32,000 bases of DNA, taken from positions 120,001 to 152,000 of the forward strand of contig JBAZYG010000002.1 of assembly GCA_041659445.1 (NCBI GenBank), in the 5' to 3' direction. The DNA comes from Candidatus Saccharimonadota bacterium. GTDB taxonomy: Archaea > Nanobdellota > Nanobdellia > Pacearchaeales > GW2011-AR1. Of the stretch, positions 3,624 through 9,646 are shown piece by piece. The notes beneath the pieces were generated by a model, which saw only the letters and a list, made by a program, of their open reading frames with translations, was not told where the DNA came from and did no database searches. Made by a program: the position numbers and the translations under genes. Within the stretch, counting starts at the first letter, position 1; each line of letters begins with the position of its first letter.

Positions 3624-4091
3624 CTAATGCTTATGTCCGCATTTACATTCTTCGTCTGAGCAATCACAATCTTCATCGCAATCACATTCATGAGTATGCT
3701 CATGCTCGTGTTCTTCTTGATATTCTAAAATCAATTTTGTTAATTCTGAATTTATTTTTTTTAATTCTTGTTCTAAATTATCTCGCGAAATATTCAATTT
3801 TTCTATTTGCTCTGAAATTATTTTTTTTGTCTCAGGAATAGATTTTTTAACAAAATTTTTATCGCCAACATCGACTATTAATTCTTCTGAAATTAAATTT
3901 GTCTTAACAAAAATTCCTCTTCCAACTTGTGACAAAATTTCTTTTCCAATTTTTCCTTTTAATTCATCCAAATCATTGTTCAATCTGCTTAAATCTAAGA
4001 TAGTTTCTTCTAATATTTGCAATTGTTGCTGAATTTGCATTATTTGTTGTTCAAATATTGAAAACTTCATTTGTAATTCTGATTCGTTCAT
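3624..4091 (-). CDS. pfdA: Prefoldin alpha subunit with a Cys/His/Asp/Glu-rich C-terminal tail
   Basis: Coiled-coil N- and C-terminal segments flank a double beta-hairpin core (EILSQVGRGIFVKTNLISEELIVDVGDKNFVKKSIPETKK), as in alpha-class prefoldin. The last 30 aa are EEHEHEHTHECDCDEDCDCSDEECKCGHKH. Confidence 0.6.
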   Translation of the reverse strand: MNESELQMKFSIFEQQIMQIQQQLQILEETILDLSRLNNDLDELKGKIGKEILSQVGRGIFVKTNLISEELIVDVGDKNFVKKSIPETKKIISEQIEKLNISRDNLEQELKKINSELTKLILEYQEEHEHEHTHECDCDEDCDCSDEECKCGHKH

Positions 4092-4808: not shown

Positions 4809-5678
4809 ATGGTAAAGCATGTTGATTTTAAGCGAAAAGAAATAATCATTCCAGGAGCAACAGTAATAACTTTAGATGCAGAATCTGCTTTAGGTTTTGC
4901 TCCAATTGAAGTTTATGCTCAAGCAAAAGCAAAAATAAAAAAAGATTTCATAGACAATGAAAGAGCAATAAAATCTTTAACTAACGGAATTAATTTTGAA
5001 ACATTAAAAGGTTCTCAATTTTTTTGGAATAATTATTTGAATAATTTTTTAAAAGAGCAAGGAATAAATGGAAGAATAATGAATATAAATGATTTAGGAA
5101 ATATTTATGCTTTAGATAAAAATTTCTTTGAAAATCATTATTCTGATACAATAAATTTATGTTTAAGAAGTGAAGAAATTGGTTGGAAAAATAATAAACA
5201 TATTTTAGAAGATTTAGTTAAACAAGTTAAATCAAGAGAAAAAAGTTTTTCTCCAAAAAATCCTTTAATTATTTCTAATTTAGAAATTGTAAGTGATAAT
5301 AATTCAAATAATTTTTATGGGCTTTTATTAAAACTTAAAGAAGATTCAATTCTTGAAAATGATGAAAGATTTGCTTTTGGAAAAAATAAAATAAAATTTG
5401 AAAGTTTATTTGGAGATGTTGAAAAGAATCTTTATACAAAAGAAAAAGATTTGTCTAGGGTTTATGCGAATGATAGTCAGAATGTGAATGGTGACAATGA
5501 CGTTTTGCATGATTCCAATGATAATGGCTGGGTGGTTTTTGTGAGCGACGAAGTCGCGAACTCTTCGCAAAATTTTAAAGAGCATTTAAAAAGTCTCAAA
5601 GAAGAAAGAGATAAGCAAATTACAGAAATAAATCAAAGATACATTCAAGCATTAGATATTTTGAAAGGAAAAAAATAA
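4809..5678 (+). CDS. DGR variable (target) protein, otherwise unknown family
   Basis: 289 aa. The VR is in frame (LSRVYANDSQNVNGDNDVLHDSNDNGWVVF, residues ~215-244), and the corresponding TR codons are AAY-rich (Asn). No signal peptide or TM segment is visible. Confidence 0.7.
   Translation: MVKHVDFKRKEIIIPGATVITLDAESALGFAPIEVYAQAKAKIKKDFIDNERAIKSLTNGINFETLKGSQFFWNNYLNNFLKEQGINGRIMNINDLGNIYALDKNFFENHYSDTINLCLRSEEIGWKNNKHILEDLVKQVKSREKSFSPKNPLIISNLEIVSDNNSNNFYGLLLKLKEDSILENDERFAFGKNKIKFESLFGDVEKNLYTKEKDLSRVYANDSQNVNGDNDVLHDSNDNGWVVFVSDEVANSSQNFKEHLKSLKEERDKQITEINQRYIQALDILKGKK
5451..5540 (+). repeat. DGR variable repeat (VR)
   Basis: 78/90 identical to 5852-5941. VR carries G/T where TR has A at 5472, 5493, 5502, 5503, 5511, 5531, 5532, 5535 and 5539. 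Confidence 0.8.
5545..5568 (+). promoter_or_regulatory. GC-rich hairpin(s) immediately 3' of the VR (DGR target-recognition hairpin candidate)
   Basis: gcgac-gaa-gtcgc (5545-5557) overlaps gcgaa-ctc-ttcgc (5556-5568). This is an isolated GC island in AT-rich DNA, absent downstream of the TR. Confidence 0.55.
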
Positions 5679-5702
5679 AAATTCATTTTTCTTCTTAACT
5701 TT

Positions 5703-5720
5703 CCTATCCTTGAGGATAGG
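5703..5720 (+). other. Perfect 7-bp stem hairpin cctatcc-ttga-ggatagg downstream of the target gene stop
   Basis: Direct reading. A related tatcc-aaa-ggata hairpin occurs at 5938-5952, just after the TR. Confidence 0.4.
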
Positions 5721-5790
5721 CCACAAGCTCTTTTATTAGTGGTTTCAAAAACCCAGTGAAATTCAACTTTGACAATTTGTAATTAAAATA

Positions 5791-5798
5791 TTATAAAA
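5791..5798 (+). promoter_or_regulatory. Candidate TATA box (ttataaaa) for the TR-RT transcript
   Basis: It lies ~54 nt upstream of the TR start, which would place the TSS near 5820 so that the TR and RT are co-transcribed. Confidence 0.3.
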
Positions 5799-5851
5799 TT
5801 GAAGAAGCGGTGGCTAACTTTAAGTTAGATAATTGGTAAAAGGGCTAAATA

Positions 5852-5941
5852 TTGTCTAGGGTTTATGCGAATAATAGTCAGAATGTGAATTCTAACAATG
5901 ACAATTTGCATAATTCCAATGATAATGGCTGAATGACTTAT
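5852..5941 (+). repeat. DGR template repeat (TR), noncoding
   Basis: Cognate of the VR. In the VR reading frame it encodes Asn-rich LSRVYANNSQNVNSNNDNLHNSNDNG and then a TGA stop, so it is not itself part of an ORF. It ends 20 nt before the RT ATG. Confidence 0.8.
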
Positions 5942-5960
5942 CCAAAGGATAGATAATAAT

Positions 5961-6953
5961 ATGGATATTTATAATGAAACCATTTCTTTAAAAAATTTAA
6001 TTTTTGCTTATAAAAAAGCAAGAAAAGGAAAAACAAAAAAAGATTATGTAATTAAATTTGAAGAAAATCTTGCTTACAATTTAAAAATTCTCTATGATGA
6101 ATTAAAAAATGAAACTTACAAACCAAAACCTTTGCAATCTTTTATTTTGAGAGACCCAAAAACTCGTAAAATTTCAAAATCAGATTTTCGCGATAGGATT
6201 GTTCATCATGCATTATGCAATATCCTTGAACCAATTTTTGAAAAAGTATTTATTTATGATTCTTGTGCAAATAGAAAAAACAAAGGAACCCTATTTGCAT
6301 TACAAAGATTTGGTAAATTTCAAAGAAAAGTTACGCATAATTTATCAAAACAAGCATTTTGTTTTAAGGCAGATATTAAACATTATTTTCAAGAAATTAA
6401 TAGGGATATTTTATTAAAAATATTGGAAAAGAAAATTAAATGTTCTAAAACTATAAATTTGATTCAATTAATCTTAAATAACTTTGAAAGTAAAAAAGGA
6501 ATGCCTTTGGGAAATTTAACTTCTCAGTTTTTTGCAAATGTTTATTTAAATGAATTAGATTATTTTGTAAAGCACGAACTAAAAGTAAAATATTACTTGC
6601 GTTATGTTGATGATTTTGTTATTTTGCATAAGTCAAAAGAGCAATTAAAAATCTGGAAAGAGCAAATTAATTATTTCTTAGAAAGTAAATTAAAATTAGA
6701 GCTTCATACCGAAAAATCAAAAATAATTAATTTGTCTTCAGGTTTGGATTTTGTTGGTTTTAGAAATTTTTATTATTTTAAATTGTTAAGAAAAAGAAAT
6801 ATTTTGCAAATCATTTTTAAAATTGAATTATATAAAAAACAAGATATTAATAATAAAAATATATTGGATGTTTTTCAAGGATGGAATGCTTGTGCAAAAT
6901 GGGCAAATAGTTTTGGTTTAAGAATAATTCTTTTCTTAATTTTAATAATTTAA
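5961..6953 (+). CDS. DGR-type reverse transcriptase
   Basis: 330 aa with RT motifs RDPKTRKISKSDFRDRIVHHAL, GMPLGNLTSQFFANVYLNELD (the [IL]GxxxSQ DGR signature), YLRYVDDFVILH (YxDD) and GLDFVGF. The 3' end overlaps the convergent secY stop by 4 nt. Confidence 0.85.
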   Translation: MDIYNETISLKNLIFAYKKARKGKTKKDYVIKFEENLAYNLKILYDELKNETYKPKPLQSFILRDPKTRKISKSDFRDRIVHHALCNILEPIFEKVFIYDSCANRKNKGTLFALQRFGKFQRKVTHNLSKQAFCFKADIKHYFQEINRDILLKILEKKIKCSKTINLIQLILNNFESKKGMPLGNLTSQFFANVYLNELDYFVKHELKVKYYLRYVDDFVILHKSKEQLKIWKEQINYFLESKLKLELHTEKSKIINLSSGLDFVGFRNFYYFKLLRKRNILQIIFKIELYKKQDINNKNILDVFQGWNACAKWANSFGLRIILFLILII

Positions 6954-8341
6954 ATATTTCCCATGAACTTTCTTAATGCGGGATTCATGTCCTCCATATG
7001 TTGTTTAGCAATACTTTGATAGAATTGGAACATAATCATAATTACTAATAAAATTGCAGTTCCTGAAACTAATGCTCCTAGTAAGTCTGTGAACGAAGCA
7101 AGCAAACCAATTGCAGCACCACCCATCACAGTTAAAGGCATAACATATCTTTCTAAAATACTTTCTAAAATTCTTATATCTTGTCTAAATCCTGCAACTT
7201 GTAATCCTGATGAAGCAATTCTTTTTGCTTGGGATTTAGCGTCCATACCAGAAGTTTTAACCCAAAACCACGAGAACAAAGCACAAAGAACTACATAAGA
7301 AATAATATGTGTAATTCCCTGAAATAAATAAATTGGTAAAAATCCTCCTCTGATTATTAATTCCAATAAGTTTGTATTTCCCATCCAGAACCCAACACCT
7401 GAAACAGCTTGTCCGTTGACAAAATGACCTAAAAATGTTGGATGTCCAAGCCAATTTTCTAAAATTCCTCCAAACAATTGAATATTTGCAACTAATGCAG
7501 CGACTAGAATAACGGGAATAACACTTGCATAAAAAAATGATAAAGGCCATTTAACACCGTATCCTCTGATTTTCCCGTATGAAAGAGGAACTTCAACTTT
7601 TAATGATTGAGCCCAAACAACTGCTAAGAAAATTAATACTGTGACAATTAAAGCAGCTAACGAAGAAATTAATTCTGTAGGATATTTATTAATTATTGAT
7701 TGAATGAATAATAAAATTTTACCAGAACAAGGAGTTCCAGAAAAATCAACAAGACAATTTTTTCCTTGAGCGTCGATGAACTGGAATGCACTTGTAATCA
7801 ATCTCCAAGAAACACCTGCACCAATAAATAAACTTACTCCTGAACCAAATCCCCATTTTTCAGAAACTTCATTCATGTAATAAATTGCAATTCCTCCGAG
7901 GATTAATTGGGCTATTACAATTCCTTTAAATCCAGTTGCTGCTTGAAGTCCATTCATTAAAACATAAACTAAAGATTCAAAGATTATAAAAAAGAAAGTT
8001 AATATTTTTTGAGTTCCTTGGAAAAACTTTTTACCTTCTGGTGTTGTTAAATCAATGTTTACTATTCCTGAACCTGTAAGTAATTGCAAAATAATCGACG
8101 CCATTACTATTGGTCCAATACCTAAAGATATAATTGAACCAAAATCTGTTCCTAAAATAATTGCTAAATATTCAAATCTATCTAACGCACTAGCAGTTAA
8201 TCCAAATAAAGATATATTAGCTAAAACAAAGAATGAAATCAAAATAATTATAGTCCATTTAAGTTTAACATTAAAACTCAGTTTTTTTTCATCTGGTTTT
8301 CTTACTTCTGGAATTAACTCAAATATCTTTTTCCAATCCAT
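6950..8341 (-). CDS. secY: Preprotein translocase subunit SecY
   Basis: 463 aa, 10-TM topology, conserved blocks GIGPIVMASIILQLL and the C-terminal cytoplasmic loop. It occupies the canonical position after L15. Confidence 0.93.
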   Translation of the reverse strand: MDWKKIFELIPEVRKPDEKKLSFNVKLKWTIIILISFFVLANISLFGLTASALDRFEYLAIILGTDFGSIISLGIGPIVMASIILQLLTGSGIVNIDLTTPEGKKFFQGTQKILTFFFIIFESLVYVLMNGLQAATGFKGIVIAQLILGGIAIYYMNEVSEKWGFGSGVSLFIGAGVSWRLITSAFQFIDAQGKNCLVDFSGTPCSGKILLFIQSIINKYPTELISSLAALIVTVLIFLAVVWAQSLKVEVPLSYGKIRGYGVKWPLSFFYASVIPVILVAALVANIQLFGGILENWLGHPTFLGHFVNGQAVSGVGFWMGNTNLLELIIRGGFLPIYLFQGITHIISYVVLCALFSWFWVKTSGMDAKSQAKRIASSGLQVAGFRQDIRILESILERYVMPLTVMGGAAIGLLASFTDLLGALVSGTAILLVIMIMFQFYQSIAKQHMEDMNPALRKFMGNI

Positions 8342-8381: not shown

Positions 8382-8882
8382 CTACTTCTTTTCTTTTTTC
8401 TTTGTGTGTTTTGGATTCTCAACAATCGGAGTTTCAATAATCTTTTTTTCTTTAACAATGATTTCTCCACCTGCTTTTTTTACTTTTTCAATAGCAGAAT
8501 TTGAAGCCTCGTATGCTCTGATTATTAATTTGTGTTTAACTTCTCCATCACCTAAAATTTTGTATCCTTCAAGATTAATTTCATAAACATCTTTATTTTT
8601 TTTACCATATTTTTCAAGATTAAGTTGGATTGTTCTTAAATTAATTCTTAATCTTTTATCTCTTTCAGTTTTTTTACTTGTTATTCCTTGTTTTCCAAAA
8701 TAATCATTTCCATATAATTTTGTTATTAATGTTTTTTTGTGGTCTGCTCTTTTACCGCTTCCAGCCATTCCAACTCCACCCTTATGTCCAGATTTCTTTC
8801 TTTTCTTTCTAGCTCCGCCTCCATGAGTTCCCATTTTTCTTCCATGCATTCTTGATTTTTTATTTCTTTTTTTAATTTTCAT
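8382..8882 (-). CDS. rpl15: 50S ribosomal protein L15 (uL15)
   Basis: Gly/Lys-rich N-terminus MHGRKMGTHGGGARKKRKKSGHKGGVGMAGSGKR; operon position. Confidence 0.9.
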   Translation of the reverse strand: MKIKKRNKKSRMHGRKMGTHGGGARKKRKKSGHKGGVGMAGSGKRADHKKTLITKLYGNDYFGKQGITSKKTERDKRLRINLRTIQLNLEKYGKKNKDVYEINLEGYKILGDGEVKHKLIIRAYEASNSAIEKVKKAGGEIIVKEKKIIETPIVENPKHTKKKEKK

Positions 8883-9282
8883 TTTTCTCCAATAAATCTA
8901 TTCCATCAAAAATAGGTTTAAATCTTTTTTCTATTCCTTGTTTATTCTTTTTACTTGCTAAAAAGCTGATATCAATTTGAATTCCAACAGGCCAAAAAGG
9001 ACCATCATCTAGTTCTCCATACCAAAGCATATTTCCTTCATTTGATATTTTTAAATAATAATTATTTTTTTCATCTCTCACACCAAATACTATTTTTTTC
9101 TCTTGGTTTTTAAAAATTTTATGGTTTCCTAAAAACACTCCTAAATATTCTTTTTCTGAACCCAATGAAGTTAAAGGATAAACTTCTCCAACTTTAGTTG
9201 GATTAACATAAATTATTCTTTTTTTTTCTGTAGAATCAAAGTTTAAATTTTCCCAAGCAATTTTTTTCAAATTTTTATCCAT
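8872..9282 (-). CDS. Orphan ORF e inserted between L30 and L15
   Basis: 136 aa with no recognisable family. The start is 1 nt after the L30 stop (TAAAATG junction) and the 3' end overlaps the L15 start by 11 nt. The first 7 codons are identical to those of S5. Confidence 0.55.
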   Translation of the reverse strand: MDKNLKKIAWENLNFDSTEKKRIIYVNPTKVGEVYPLTSLGSEKEYLGVFLGNHKIFKNQEKKIVFGVRDEKNNYYLKISNEGNMLWYGELDDGPFWPVGIQIDISFLASKKNKQGIEKRFKPIFDGIDLLEKNEN

Positions 9283-9283
9283 T

Positions 9284-9646
9284 TTATAACATTCTCCTTA
9301 TTAAATCATTAATTTTTTCTTTGTGGTTTCCTAAGACTCCGCCTTCTTCGACGTGCAATTTTGCTTTTATTCCTTTTCTAGGTGGATGTAATCTGAAAAA
9401 TGGTTTTAATTTTCCAGAAATGTCTTTTTTTCCTCTTTTGTTTACTAATTCTTTATATGTTTCATCGTCGATATTTCCATAAGCTACAAAACTATGAACT
9501 CTTTTTATCATTCCAATATTTTCTTTTGTATCTTCAATTACAACACAAGCATATTTTTTTCTTAATCTTAATCTATCTAAAGTATCAATTATTTCTTTTT
9601 TTATTCCTATTTTTCCTTTGATTCTTATAATTGCAATTTTACTCAT
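9284..9646 (-). CDS. rpl30: 50S ribosomal protein L30 (uL30)
   Basis: IAIIRIKGKIGIKKEIIDTLDRLRLRKKYACVV pattern; ATGA overlap with the S5 stop. Confidence 0.85.
   Translation of the reverse strand: MSKIAIIRIKGKIGIKKEIIDTLDRLRLRKKYACVVIEDTKENIGMIKRVHSFVAYGNIDDETYKELVNKRGKKDISGKLKPFFRLHPPRKGIKAKLHVEEGGVLGNHKEKINDLIRRML

Follow-up and report, generated by a model that had tools for sequence, protein, structure and literature searches.

What kind of element places a reverse transcriptase (RT) gene and two near-identical stretches of DNA side by side in the genome of an archaeon, and how could it work with only two genes? We ask this question for positions 4809-6953 of the window, which is the whole 32,000-nucleotide (nt) stretch of contig JBAZYG010000002.1 that was analyzed. 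Very probably, the region is a diversity-generating retroelement (DGR) with just two genes, carried by an archaeon of Candidatus Pacearchaeota (DPANN). We call it a DGR because its anatomy, its RT type and the behavior of its class all agree. To our knowledge, DGRs are the sole natural system of targeted protein hypermutation in prokaryotes. They are under development as in vivo diversification tools.

Anatomy of the element

Both genes of the element lie on the forward strand. The first (4809-5678) encodes the target, or variable, protein of 289 amino acids (aa). Its family is uncharacterized, and its sequence is the same as that of WC812_04200 in a metagenome-assembled genome (MAG) assigned to Candidatus Pacearchaeota. 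The second (5961-6953) encodes an intact DGR-type RT of 330 aa. A variable repeat (VR, 5451-5530) lies in frame 0 of the target open reading frame (ORF), in the 3' part of the gene, where it encodes residues 215-240. The matching template repeat (TR, 5852-5931, same strand) ends 30 nt before the ATG of the RT. In this well-matched core the two repeats are identical at 73 of 80 positions. The best repeat in 20 mononucleotide shuffles of the window reaches 42-49 of 80, and an 18-mer of the repeat is expected by chance 0.00 times.

An initial annotation of this DNA had compared a slightly longer span, 5451-5540 against 5852-5941. Its identity of 78/90 at a fixed offset of 401 nt is correct (12 of the 90 positions differ). 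It had also placed nine of the 12 differences where the template has A. The count is right, but four of the nine (5531, 5532, 5535 and 5539) sit in a fixed end block, which reads GGGTGGTT in the VR and GAATGACT in the TR and is unchanged across all related VRs and TRs. Every related VR is followed by GGGTGG and every related TR by [GT]AAT[GA][AG], which is GAATGA in the window. Because they are fixed in this way, we take the end-block differences as similar to the initiation of mutagenic homing sites (IMH and IMH*) of known DGRs, and not as evidence of mutagenesis. The IMH-like invariant 3' end of the VR (5530-5541, forward strand; GGGTGGTTTTTG) encodes G-W-V-V.

Within the core, five of the seven differences fall on TR adenines (5472, 5493, 5502, 5503 and 5511). 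The other two are adjacent, at 5490-5491, where the VR has GG and the TR has TC. Taken alone, the window gives weak statistical support for adenine-specific divergence (Fisher p = 0.045).

The TR contains 27 adenines. Read in the VR frame it gives LSRVYANNSQNVNSNNDNLHNSNDNG followed by a stop; the TGA is completed by the AATGA that comes directly after the TR (5932-5936). The asparagine-rich character that the annotation had ascribed to the template is real, with AAY at 10 of 26 codons. The TR is noncoding and adjoins the RT, again as described, but the stretch on its 5' side is occupied by an Rfam motif, RT-16 (5703-5853), to which we return below.

The RT has the features of the DGR type. 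Motif 4 has the form (I/L/V)GxxxSQ, the catalytic motif is YxDD, and the protein falls within the compact size range of about 300-400 aa. The LGNLTSQ and YVDD that had been read from ORF 5961-6953 are both there. Pfam RVT_1 matches the protein at 5e-22. Over its full length the closest solved relative is 8ub7_A (328 aa, E 1e-46), which we take to be bRT of the Bordetella phage, as used in the cryo-EM study; RTs of group II introns and of the retron type match at 1e-19 to 1e-20. An alignment with seven relatives shows that the RT keeps all residues that are invariant in them, catalytic motifs included. The class of the RT is based on motifs, the full-length match to a structure chain and family models. 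More than 7,000 proteins are homologous to the RT at E<=1e-40, and the named ones are labeled Pacearchaeota, Nanoarchaeota or Nanoarchaeia.

The C-terminus of the RT is hydrophobic (LRIILFLILII, window 6925-6953) and has no counterpart in the seven-sequence alignment, which was made from tblastn-bounded segments. This tail may be a read-through extension. At its stop codon the RT shares 4 nt with the 3' end of SecY, a convergent gene (6950-8341, reverse strand).

Related cassettes

Scans of metagenomes and reference genomes with a profile of the target family found 26 further loci. In 12 of the 26, all from Pacearchaeota/Nanoarchaeota, the target homolog is followed by an RT that is 58-74% identical to the one in the window. 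The order target, RT-16, TR and RT recurs in L002, L007, L009, L010, L017, L019, L020, L021, L024, L026 and L027, and in L025 with the RT inverted.

We compared the VR/TR pairs of these loci in register. The pairs of L024, L026 and L019 are heavily mutated. In six other loci the differences fall almost exclusively on TR adenines: 13 of 13 in L002, 13 of 15 in L007, 11 of 11 in L009, 12 of 12 in L010, 17 of 19 in L017 and 11 of 11 in L021. For these six loci the adenine specificity has a Fisher p between 3e-6 and 6e-9. When the six are pooled with the window and L019, the eight pairs contain 69 changes from A to G, 28 from A to T and 3 from A to C.

Variation within the target family is concentrated in the same place. 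Family members P0009 and P0210 differ in nine alignment columns, and all nine are inside the VR. In the P0173 cluster, with 15 members at 90% identity, variation is mostly in the VR. The annotation's reading of the region as a DGR is thus supported mainly by comparative data: 12 related cassettes, adenine-specific divergence in this class and variation that near-identical family members show essentially within the VR.

Two other loci have targets of another type. At L030 (2223-4606) a module of RT-16, TR and an RT that is 55% identical to ours is followed, downstream of the RT, by two small tandem proteins of 157 and 146 aa that end in LGVRFARK. These have no Pfam match, and hhalign finds no relation between them and the target family of the window. 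The VR of L030 (4484-4562) differs from its TR at 11 positions, all of them TR adenines. At L032, where the VR lies upstream (at 1658), the same is true of 10 of 10 differences.

Some of the cassettes have peculiarities of their own. The TR of L024 (1120-1205) differs from the TR of L026 (3766-3851) only where the latter has A (GAAG/GGAG, AATAAT/AATGGT, GAATTC/GTATTC and CTAATGG/CTTATGG). It looks as if the L024 TR had itself been adenine-mutagenized, that is, as if a cDNA had homed into the template. L020 and L021 are apparently identical cassettes with the same neighbors and the same VR/TR, about 50 kb apart on the 218.8-kb contig Ga0208648_1000010 (ranges 126961-135998 and 74288-83325, respectively); this is either a large duplication or an assembly artifact. 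Two cassettes are decayed. L019 (4913-5878) has an in-frame stop in its RT and 35 mismatches in its VR, 18 of them at A. In L002 (4013-5120) the RT is split into two ORFs, yet all 13 of its VR/TR differences are at adenines. Finally, in L007 (3995-5670) and L114 (2159-3858) two members of the target family stand in tandem upstream of RT-16; the second copy in L007 is about 25% identical to the window target.

A structured RNA next to the template

Between the stop codon of the target gene and the TR there are 173 nt, and RT-16 (Rfam RF03019; 5703-5853, forward strand) occupies most of them. The match is full-length (model positions 1-158) and scores 69 bits against a gathering score of 50. From its 5' end the motif consists of the P1 hairpin (5703-5720, with arms 5703-5709 and 5714-5720), the conserved junction CCACAA (5721-5726) and the P2 closing stem (5727-5736 with 5836-5845), which ends 6 nt 5' of the TR. 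RT-16 is present in all 12 related cassettes, at 81-93 bits, and ends there at the first base of the TR. It also occurs in L030 and in the cut-off locus L023 (68-101 bits), flush with the TR where a TR is present. At L032, where the RT is 41% identical to ours, a different motif takes this position: Rfam RT-15 (RF03018, 113.9 bits) at 2180-2349 ends flush with the TR 5' end. A search of viral contigs with a pattern of the RT-16 core gave one uninformative locus, L029.

RT-16 and RT-15 were described as motifs near RT genes that possibly belong to retrons (Weinberg et al. 2017, PMC5737381). Of the RT motifs, RT-10 alone was linked to a DGR, downstream of the BPP-1 TR (PMC5737381). We assign RT-16 and RT-15 to the 5' leader of DGR template RNAs because they are flush with the TR 5' end in loci that have adenine-specific VR/TR pairs. 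This assignment appears to be new.

The other side of the TR mirrors P1. In the window, P1 is CCTATCC-TTGA-GGATAGG, and the segment after the TR is AATGA-CTTATCC-AAA-GGATAG. Within the post-TR element (5937-5952, forward strand), CTTATCC (5937-5943) is complementary to the 3' arm of P1 and GGATAG (5947-5952) to the 5' arm. Where P1 is CCTAGC...GCT(A/G)GG, the post-TR segment reads C(C/T)CAGCC or CCTA..., then GCTAG(G). In L030, a P1 of CCTTAGAGG...CAGG is mirrored by CCTG...TCTCTAAGG. The complement of the P1 3' arm (7-8 nt) always starts exactly 5 nt after the AAT of the TR end.

Several statistics are consistent with pairing between the two sides. Cognate duplexes of arm and segment are more stable than non-cognate ones (permutation p 0.0002). 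Against shuffled sequences they reach z-scores of -1.6 to -6.6, and the window is the strongest of all loci at -6.6. When the complete RNA is folded without constraints, the long-range pairing is part of the minimum free energy structure for six of nine loci, among them the 258-nt RNA of the window with 17 pairs. In a hand-built alignment of the nine loci, 86.7% (84-89%) of the cells in the long-range helices are paired, and eight pairs are changed on both sides. None of 500 shuffles scores as high, and slid controls are 20-55% paired. A local post-TR hairpin as the cause of the likeness to P1 is disfavored, with 66.7% of cells paired compared with 84-89% for the long-range helices.

However, P1 is itself a well-supported local hairpin (92% paired), and it excludes the long-range duplex in the same molecule. 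The register of the helix between the P1 5' arm and the post-TR segment was chosen by hand, and the alignment comprises only nine related sequences. For these reasons we treat the long-range duplex as an alternative conformation that is not proven. The covariation in favor of a duplex between leader and post-TR segment, which would imply a permuted and Avd-independent RNA architecture, appears to be new.

The target site

A GC-rich inverted repeat, GCGAC-GAA-GTCGC (5545-5557, forward strand), follows the VR inside the coding sequence of the target. With its 5-bp stem it is a candidate for a target-site hairpin or cruciform. A DNA fold of the region shows a second, overlapping inverted repeat, GCGAA-CTC-TTCGC (5556-5568, forward strand). 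When 5537-5572 is folded as DNA, an outer stem of TTTTGTGA and TTCGCAAAA also forms. Most family members have a GC-rich inverted repeat with a 3-nt loop, 10-20 nt 3' of GGGTGG. The stems change in a compensatory manner (GACGCC-GAA-GGCGTC, GACACC-GGA-GGTGTC, GCGAC-GAA-GTCGC), and the encoded residues differ (DAEGV, SDEVA). Of the two inverted repeats, the paralog L005 keeps the first but has lost 3 nt from the second. The short paralogs L001, L006, L003 and L011, which end directly after the VR, are without the downstream hairpin; this counts against the mechanism proposed below.

A hairpin downstream of the VR is a known feature of DGR target sites and promotes homing in phage DGRs (PMC3240598). 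By analogy, the GC inverted repeat would correspond to this homing-promoting hairpin or cruciform, though it is shorter. The sequence contains both an IMH/IMH*-like asymmetry and an inverted repeat downstream of the VR, as DGRs do.

The target protein and its paralogs

The target family comprises 381 representative clusters at E<=1e-3. The window target has no match in Pfam, NCBIfam or PADLOC, 66 family members searched against Pfam at E<=1 give no consistent family, and the family profile finds no chain among PDB sequences even at E<=10. In these databases, the family is as unrecognizable as the annotation had judged it to be. A transmembrane segment is likewise absent (the maximum 19-residue Kyte-Doolittle mean is 1.39).

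An AlphaFold2 model built with the family alignment has a pLDDT of 92.2 and a pTM of 0.82. The predicted chain has helices at its N-terminus, then an alpha/beta part (111-245), and ends in a long helix (250-286). In this model two strands plus a loop come from the VR, and the last strand would be that of the invariant GWVV. A Foldseek search of the full model against PDB and BFVD returns nothing at E<=0.5. The domain 105-249 modeled alone (pLDDT 86.7) matches only fragments of OB-folds in PDB, with TMq<=0.26 and none at E<=0.5. The comparison of profiles and predicted structures that the annotation had suggested therefore gives no significant match; the weak matches, on the other hand, are enriched in C-type lectins. 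Such lectins, among them CD23 (TMt 0.45) and Mtd, make up about one quarter of the top 50 weak PDB matches of the full model. The model is compatible with a new scaffold, and it is also possible that the fold is a divergent C-type lectin.

Five paralogs of the target, 72-79% identical, are encoded in the same MAG on contigs of 221,868 and 486,529 bp. The paralog alignment is conserved except at residues 217-240, which is exactly the VR, and the hypervariable columns of the family fall here as well. The VR of the paralog L001 (P0003) has nine differences from the window TR, seven of them at A (p 0.006). It matches the TR at 51 of 53 non-A positions (96%); outside the VR, the L001 and window genes share 87.5% identity. 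Since identity at non-A positions in the VR exceeds that of the flanks, L001 looks like a remote target that was recently templated by the window TR. In the paralog L005 (P0006), 15 differences from the TR are at non-A positions and there is also a 3-nt indel; hence it has not been recently templated. Neither L001 nor L005 has an RT beside it. For the remaining three we compared amino acids only: substitutions at A alone can reach 12 of 12 VR residue changes in P0004, 7 of 8 in P0002 and 9 of 13 in P0005. As a test it is weak, since as many as 15 residues can be reached from AAY codons. Probably, the window TR also serves at least some of the five paralogous targets.

Two family members, P0196 and P0203, carry the NCBI labels Patescibacteria and Acidiferrobacterales. 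The labels may reflect binning contamination, or a transfer of the target family outside DPANN archaea.

A proposed mechanism without an accessory gene

Avd is found in about 74% of DGRs and is not strictly defining. Ten non-ribosomal ORFs of the window were tested, and the five small ones among them that were scanned have no Pfam match to Avd or a four-helix bundle. An all-against-all comparison of ORFs of at least 60 aa in 13 cassette loci finds no third conserved ORF; the shared families are RT and target only. At the locus itself the element is thus without avd, as had been proposed from the sequence, although a 32-kb window leaves room for an avd gene elsewhere in the genome. Among catalogued DGRs, 29% are without accessory genes, and an Avd-independent mechanism has already been proposed (PMC5758913). 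In a set of DGRs of the CPR (candidate phyla radiation) and DPANN, 90% have the layout TR-(avd)-RT, so a layout with no accessory gene is unusual there (PMC5758913).

How could such an element work? A transcript of about 5703-5960 would begin with RT-16 as its leader, continue through the 80-nt TR and close with a short tail. From the TR, the 330-aa RT would make cDNA, with misincorporation opposite template adenines. This cDNA would then replace the homologous 80-nt VR of the target gene. The invariant GGGTGG block would bound the transfer at the 3' side, and the GC hairpin 10 nt further on probably helps. As a result, ten AAY codons of a predicted beta-hairpin/loop surface would be rewritten.

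For the start of cDNA synthesis, the Bordetella ribonucleoprotein offers a guide. It contains a template:primer duplex, in which the TR 3' end pairs with spacer positions 47-56 and priming occurs from A56 (10.1101/2023.10.23.563531). Beside this duplex the spacer also pairs with the sequence immediately upstream of the TR, in what is called the 'cPRT stop' duplex (10.1101/2023.10.23.563531). By comparison with this structure, we infer that the RNA described here is a permutation of the Bordetella phage DGR RNA. The P1 3' arm (5714-5720), which is followed by the conserved CCACA, would pair with 5937-5943 and form a template:primer-like duplex, with the arm as primer strand and 5937-5943 as template strand. 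The P2 closing stem would act as the 'cPRT stop' duplex, and the interior of RT-16 would provide protein-binding stem-loops. Priming would then occur in cis, from the 2'-OH at the junction of P1 and CCACA, and would not need Avd.

In its complete form the proposal is that of an Avd-independent DGR class. Its RNA would be a circular permutation of the Bordetella RNA, with primer strand, stop duplex and RT-binding stem-loops all upstream of the TR. A 330-aa RT and an RNA of about 260 nt would suffice for cis-primed, adenine-mutagenic cDNA synthesis. The target would be a cytoplasmic-looking protein family that has six paralogs although the genome may be as small as 0.7 Mb (its lower bound), and its VR-bearing domain would be neither a C-type lectin nor an immunoglobulin (Ig) fold. 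We put this complete proposal forward tentatively; it is possible, but we would not bet on it as a whole.

Alternative explanations

The element could be a DGR by descent that is now inactive in this genome. In this case RT, TR and VR have been retained, retrohoming has stopped and the repeats are drifting. This is unlikely, although several observations weigh against an active element. The window VR departs from the TR at only 5 of 27 adenines and also has the two adjacent non-A changes at 5490-5491. No variant of the window target gene (P0001) is on record. The VRs of paralog P0003 and of P0209, from a second assembly, are identical. Paralog L005 has accumulated its non-A differences and indel. 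The RT-16 score of the window is the lowest among complete cassettes (the others reach 81-101 bits). Decayed relatives exist, too, as the stop codon in the RT of L019 and the split RT of L002 show.

Other observations speak against a silenced element. The RT ORF is intact and keeps every residue that is invariant in its relatives. RT-16 scores above the gathering threshold, the complementarity between P1 and the post-TR segment is the strongest of all loci, and the TR keeps its 10 AAY codons. The 96% identity of the L001 VR to the TR at non-A sites, in a gene that is otherwise 87.5% identical, argues for recent templating. This copy may still be active today.

A retron or another defense-type RT with a noncoding RNA is very improbable. 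RT-16 would then be similar to msr/msd, and the repeat and the neighboring gene would be incidental. A structured RNA does lie directly upstream of the RT, and the paper that describes the RT motifs speculated that many belong to retrons (PMC5737381). The Joint Genome Institute (JGI) labels many close homologs of the RT 'retron-type reverse transcriptase', a label that we judge to be wrong. The family models do not agree with it: the NCBIfam models for group II, retron, Drt3a and AbiA RTs all score far under their cut-offs, with 46.7 bits against a cut-off of 235 for the retron St85 RT (NF038233). Rfam finds no retron RNA family, and the best solved relative over the full length is 8ub7_A. Above all, a retron fails to explain an 80-nt repeat with adenine-specific divergence that recurs in every related cassette.

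Could the repeat have arisen with no reverse transcription at all, through ordinary duplication of part of the gene's 3' end or through gene conversion among the six paralogs? Six paralogs in one genome could exchange sequence, and the adenine bias of the window alone is only at p 0.045. However, the copied piece is always exactly the hypervariable segment, and it always lies between RT-16 and the RT gene. The copy always has an in-frame stop at the W/R codon, and in independent cassettes it differs from the VR almost only at adenines. Duplication or conversion is very improbable as an explanation.

DGR RTs generally resemble group II RTs. A remnant of a group II intron, with an intron-encoded RT and RNA domains of the intron, is the least probable explanation, since the best NCBIfam match of the RT, the group II RT/maturase model TIGR04416, is at 144.5 bits far under its cut-off of 300, the RT, at 330 aa, lacks extensions of the maturase or endonuclease kind, the window has no Rfam match to a group II intron RNA, and the RT motifs lie on one side of the RT only according to their original authors (PMC5737381).

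Genomic setting

The window has a G+C content of 27%. Outside the DGR region it encodes an archaeal ribosomal-protein/SecY cluster, an IF-2B-family protein, a prefoldin and an EMC3/YidC-like protein. The prefoldin-family protein (3624-4091, reverse strand) has an unusual C-terminal tail rich in Cys, His, Asp and Glu (EHEHEHTHECDCDEDCDCSDEECKCGHKH), suggestive of metal binding. Within the ribosomal-protein operon there is an ORF of 136 aa (8872-9282, reverse strand) without a Pfam match. The ORFs that flank it, 9284-9646 and 8382-8882, are L30- and L15-like by eye only.

Significance

DGRs have been reported as prevalent in Nanoarchaeota, Pacearchaeota and Woesearchaeota (PMC6349945). Their prevalence in Pacearchaeota and relatives is known, then, and Avd-less DGRs have been catalogued. 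What appears to be new, besides the RNA results, is a large multi-paralog target family with a confident but unmatched predicted structure.

The results bear on how cDNA synthesis starts in the roughly one quarter of DGRs without Avd. The class described here offers a minimal system of one small RT and one defined RNA, and the proposed pairing scheme is specific enough for a test with compensatory mutations. RT-16 and RT-15, until now orphans in Rfam, are also given a function. The C-type lectin fold has been found 'systematically' in DGR targets, and unclassified archaeal targets were predicted to be further lectin variants (PMC8144416). The target family bears on whether this fold is the universal DGR scaffold, and its confidently predicted structure can be compared and solved. 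A tiny symbiont-type archaeon devotes six genes to one diversified protein family. If the copy in the window is inactive or the fold is a divergent lectin, then the element is an ordinary DPANN DGR.

Comparison with known systems

The best-studied relative is the DGR of Bordetella phage BPP-1 (mtd-avd-TR-brt). The two systems share the RT type, with (I/L)GxLTSQ and YxDD. In both, the TR adjoins the RT, the VR lies in the 3' part of the target gene and the template is rich in AAY codons. Both have an IMH/IMH*-like fixed end difference and a GC-rich inverted repeat after the VR (PMC3240598), and in both the RNA upstream of the TR can be paired with the RNA downstream of it (10.1101/2023.10.23.563531). 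In contrast to BPP-1, this locus has no avd, and the host is an archaeon rather than a phage. A structured RNA of about 150 nt lies upstream of the TR, with about 25 nt from TR to RT start, whereas BPP-1 needs about 20 nt upstream and a 140-nt spacer downstream. The hairpin has a stem of 5-6 bp and a 3-nt GAA loop, compared to 7-10 bp and a GRNA tetraloop in BPP-1. Furthermore, a helical tail of 49 aa follows the VR, which is thus internal, and the target is not recognizably a C-type lectin.

Closer in host are the DGRs of Nanoarchaeota and other DPANN archaea, including that of AvpA (Paul 2015/2017; Handa 2016, PMC5006420); the variable proteins of these DGRs are also unclassifiable from sequence. 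AvpA, a variable protein of Nanoarchaeota, could not be predicted in silico and turned out to have a divergent lectin fold (PMC5006420). Like our target, it has a short internal VR (about 27 residues); a helical tail of about 46 aa comes next, with the hairpin in its DNA, and the IMH encodes an invariant strand (PMC5006420). However, the AvpA motifs GXXVVVYAH, HPXXXPFXG and RFXGV are absent from the target family described here, in which the VR ends with G(R/W)VV, and no archaeal DGR variable protein is among the listed weak Foldseek matches of the target. Avd-like proteins have been reported for the published archaeal DGRs, unlike for this one.

In gene content the element resembles the DGRs of Architecture A (Wu et al. 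2018, PMC5758913), which have a TR-RT core, an adjacent target and no avd, HRDC, MSL or CH1 gene. Here, in addition, an Rfam motif fills the leader and a specific pairing scheme is proposed; for Architecture A we found no RNA element or mechanism put forward.

The likeness to retron msr-msd is an analogy only. Each has a structured RNA 5' of its template, and pairing of the 5' region with the sequence 3' of the template would place a priming 2'-OH next to the template end. Unlike in a retron, the RT is not of the retron type by model cut-offs, the template duplicates part of a coding sequence, and homing into DNA is proposed for the product. The leader at 5703-5853 is, by its score of 69 bits against 50, a member of Rfam RT-16. 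It goes beyond the published description of RT-16 and RT-15 in one respect: RT-16 in 14 loci, and RT-15 in L032, are flush with the 5' end of a TR.

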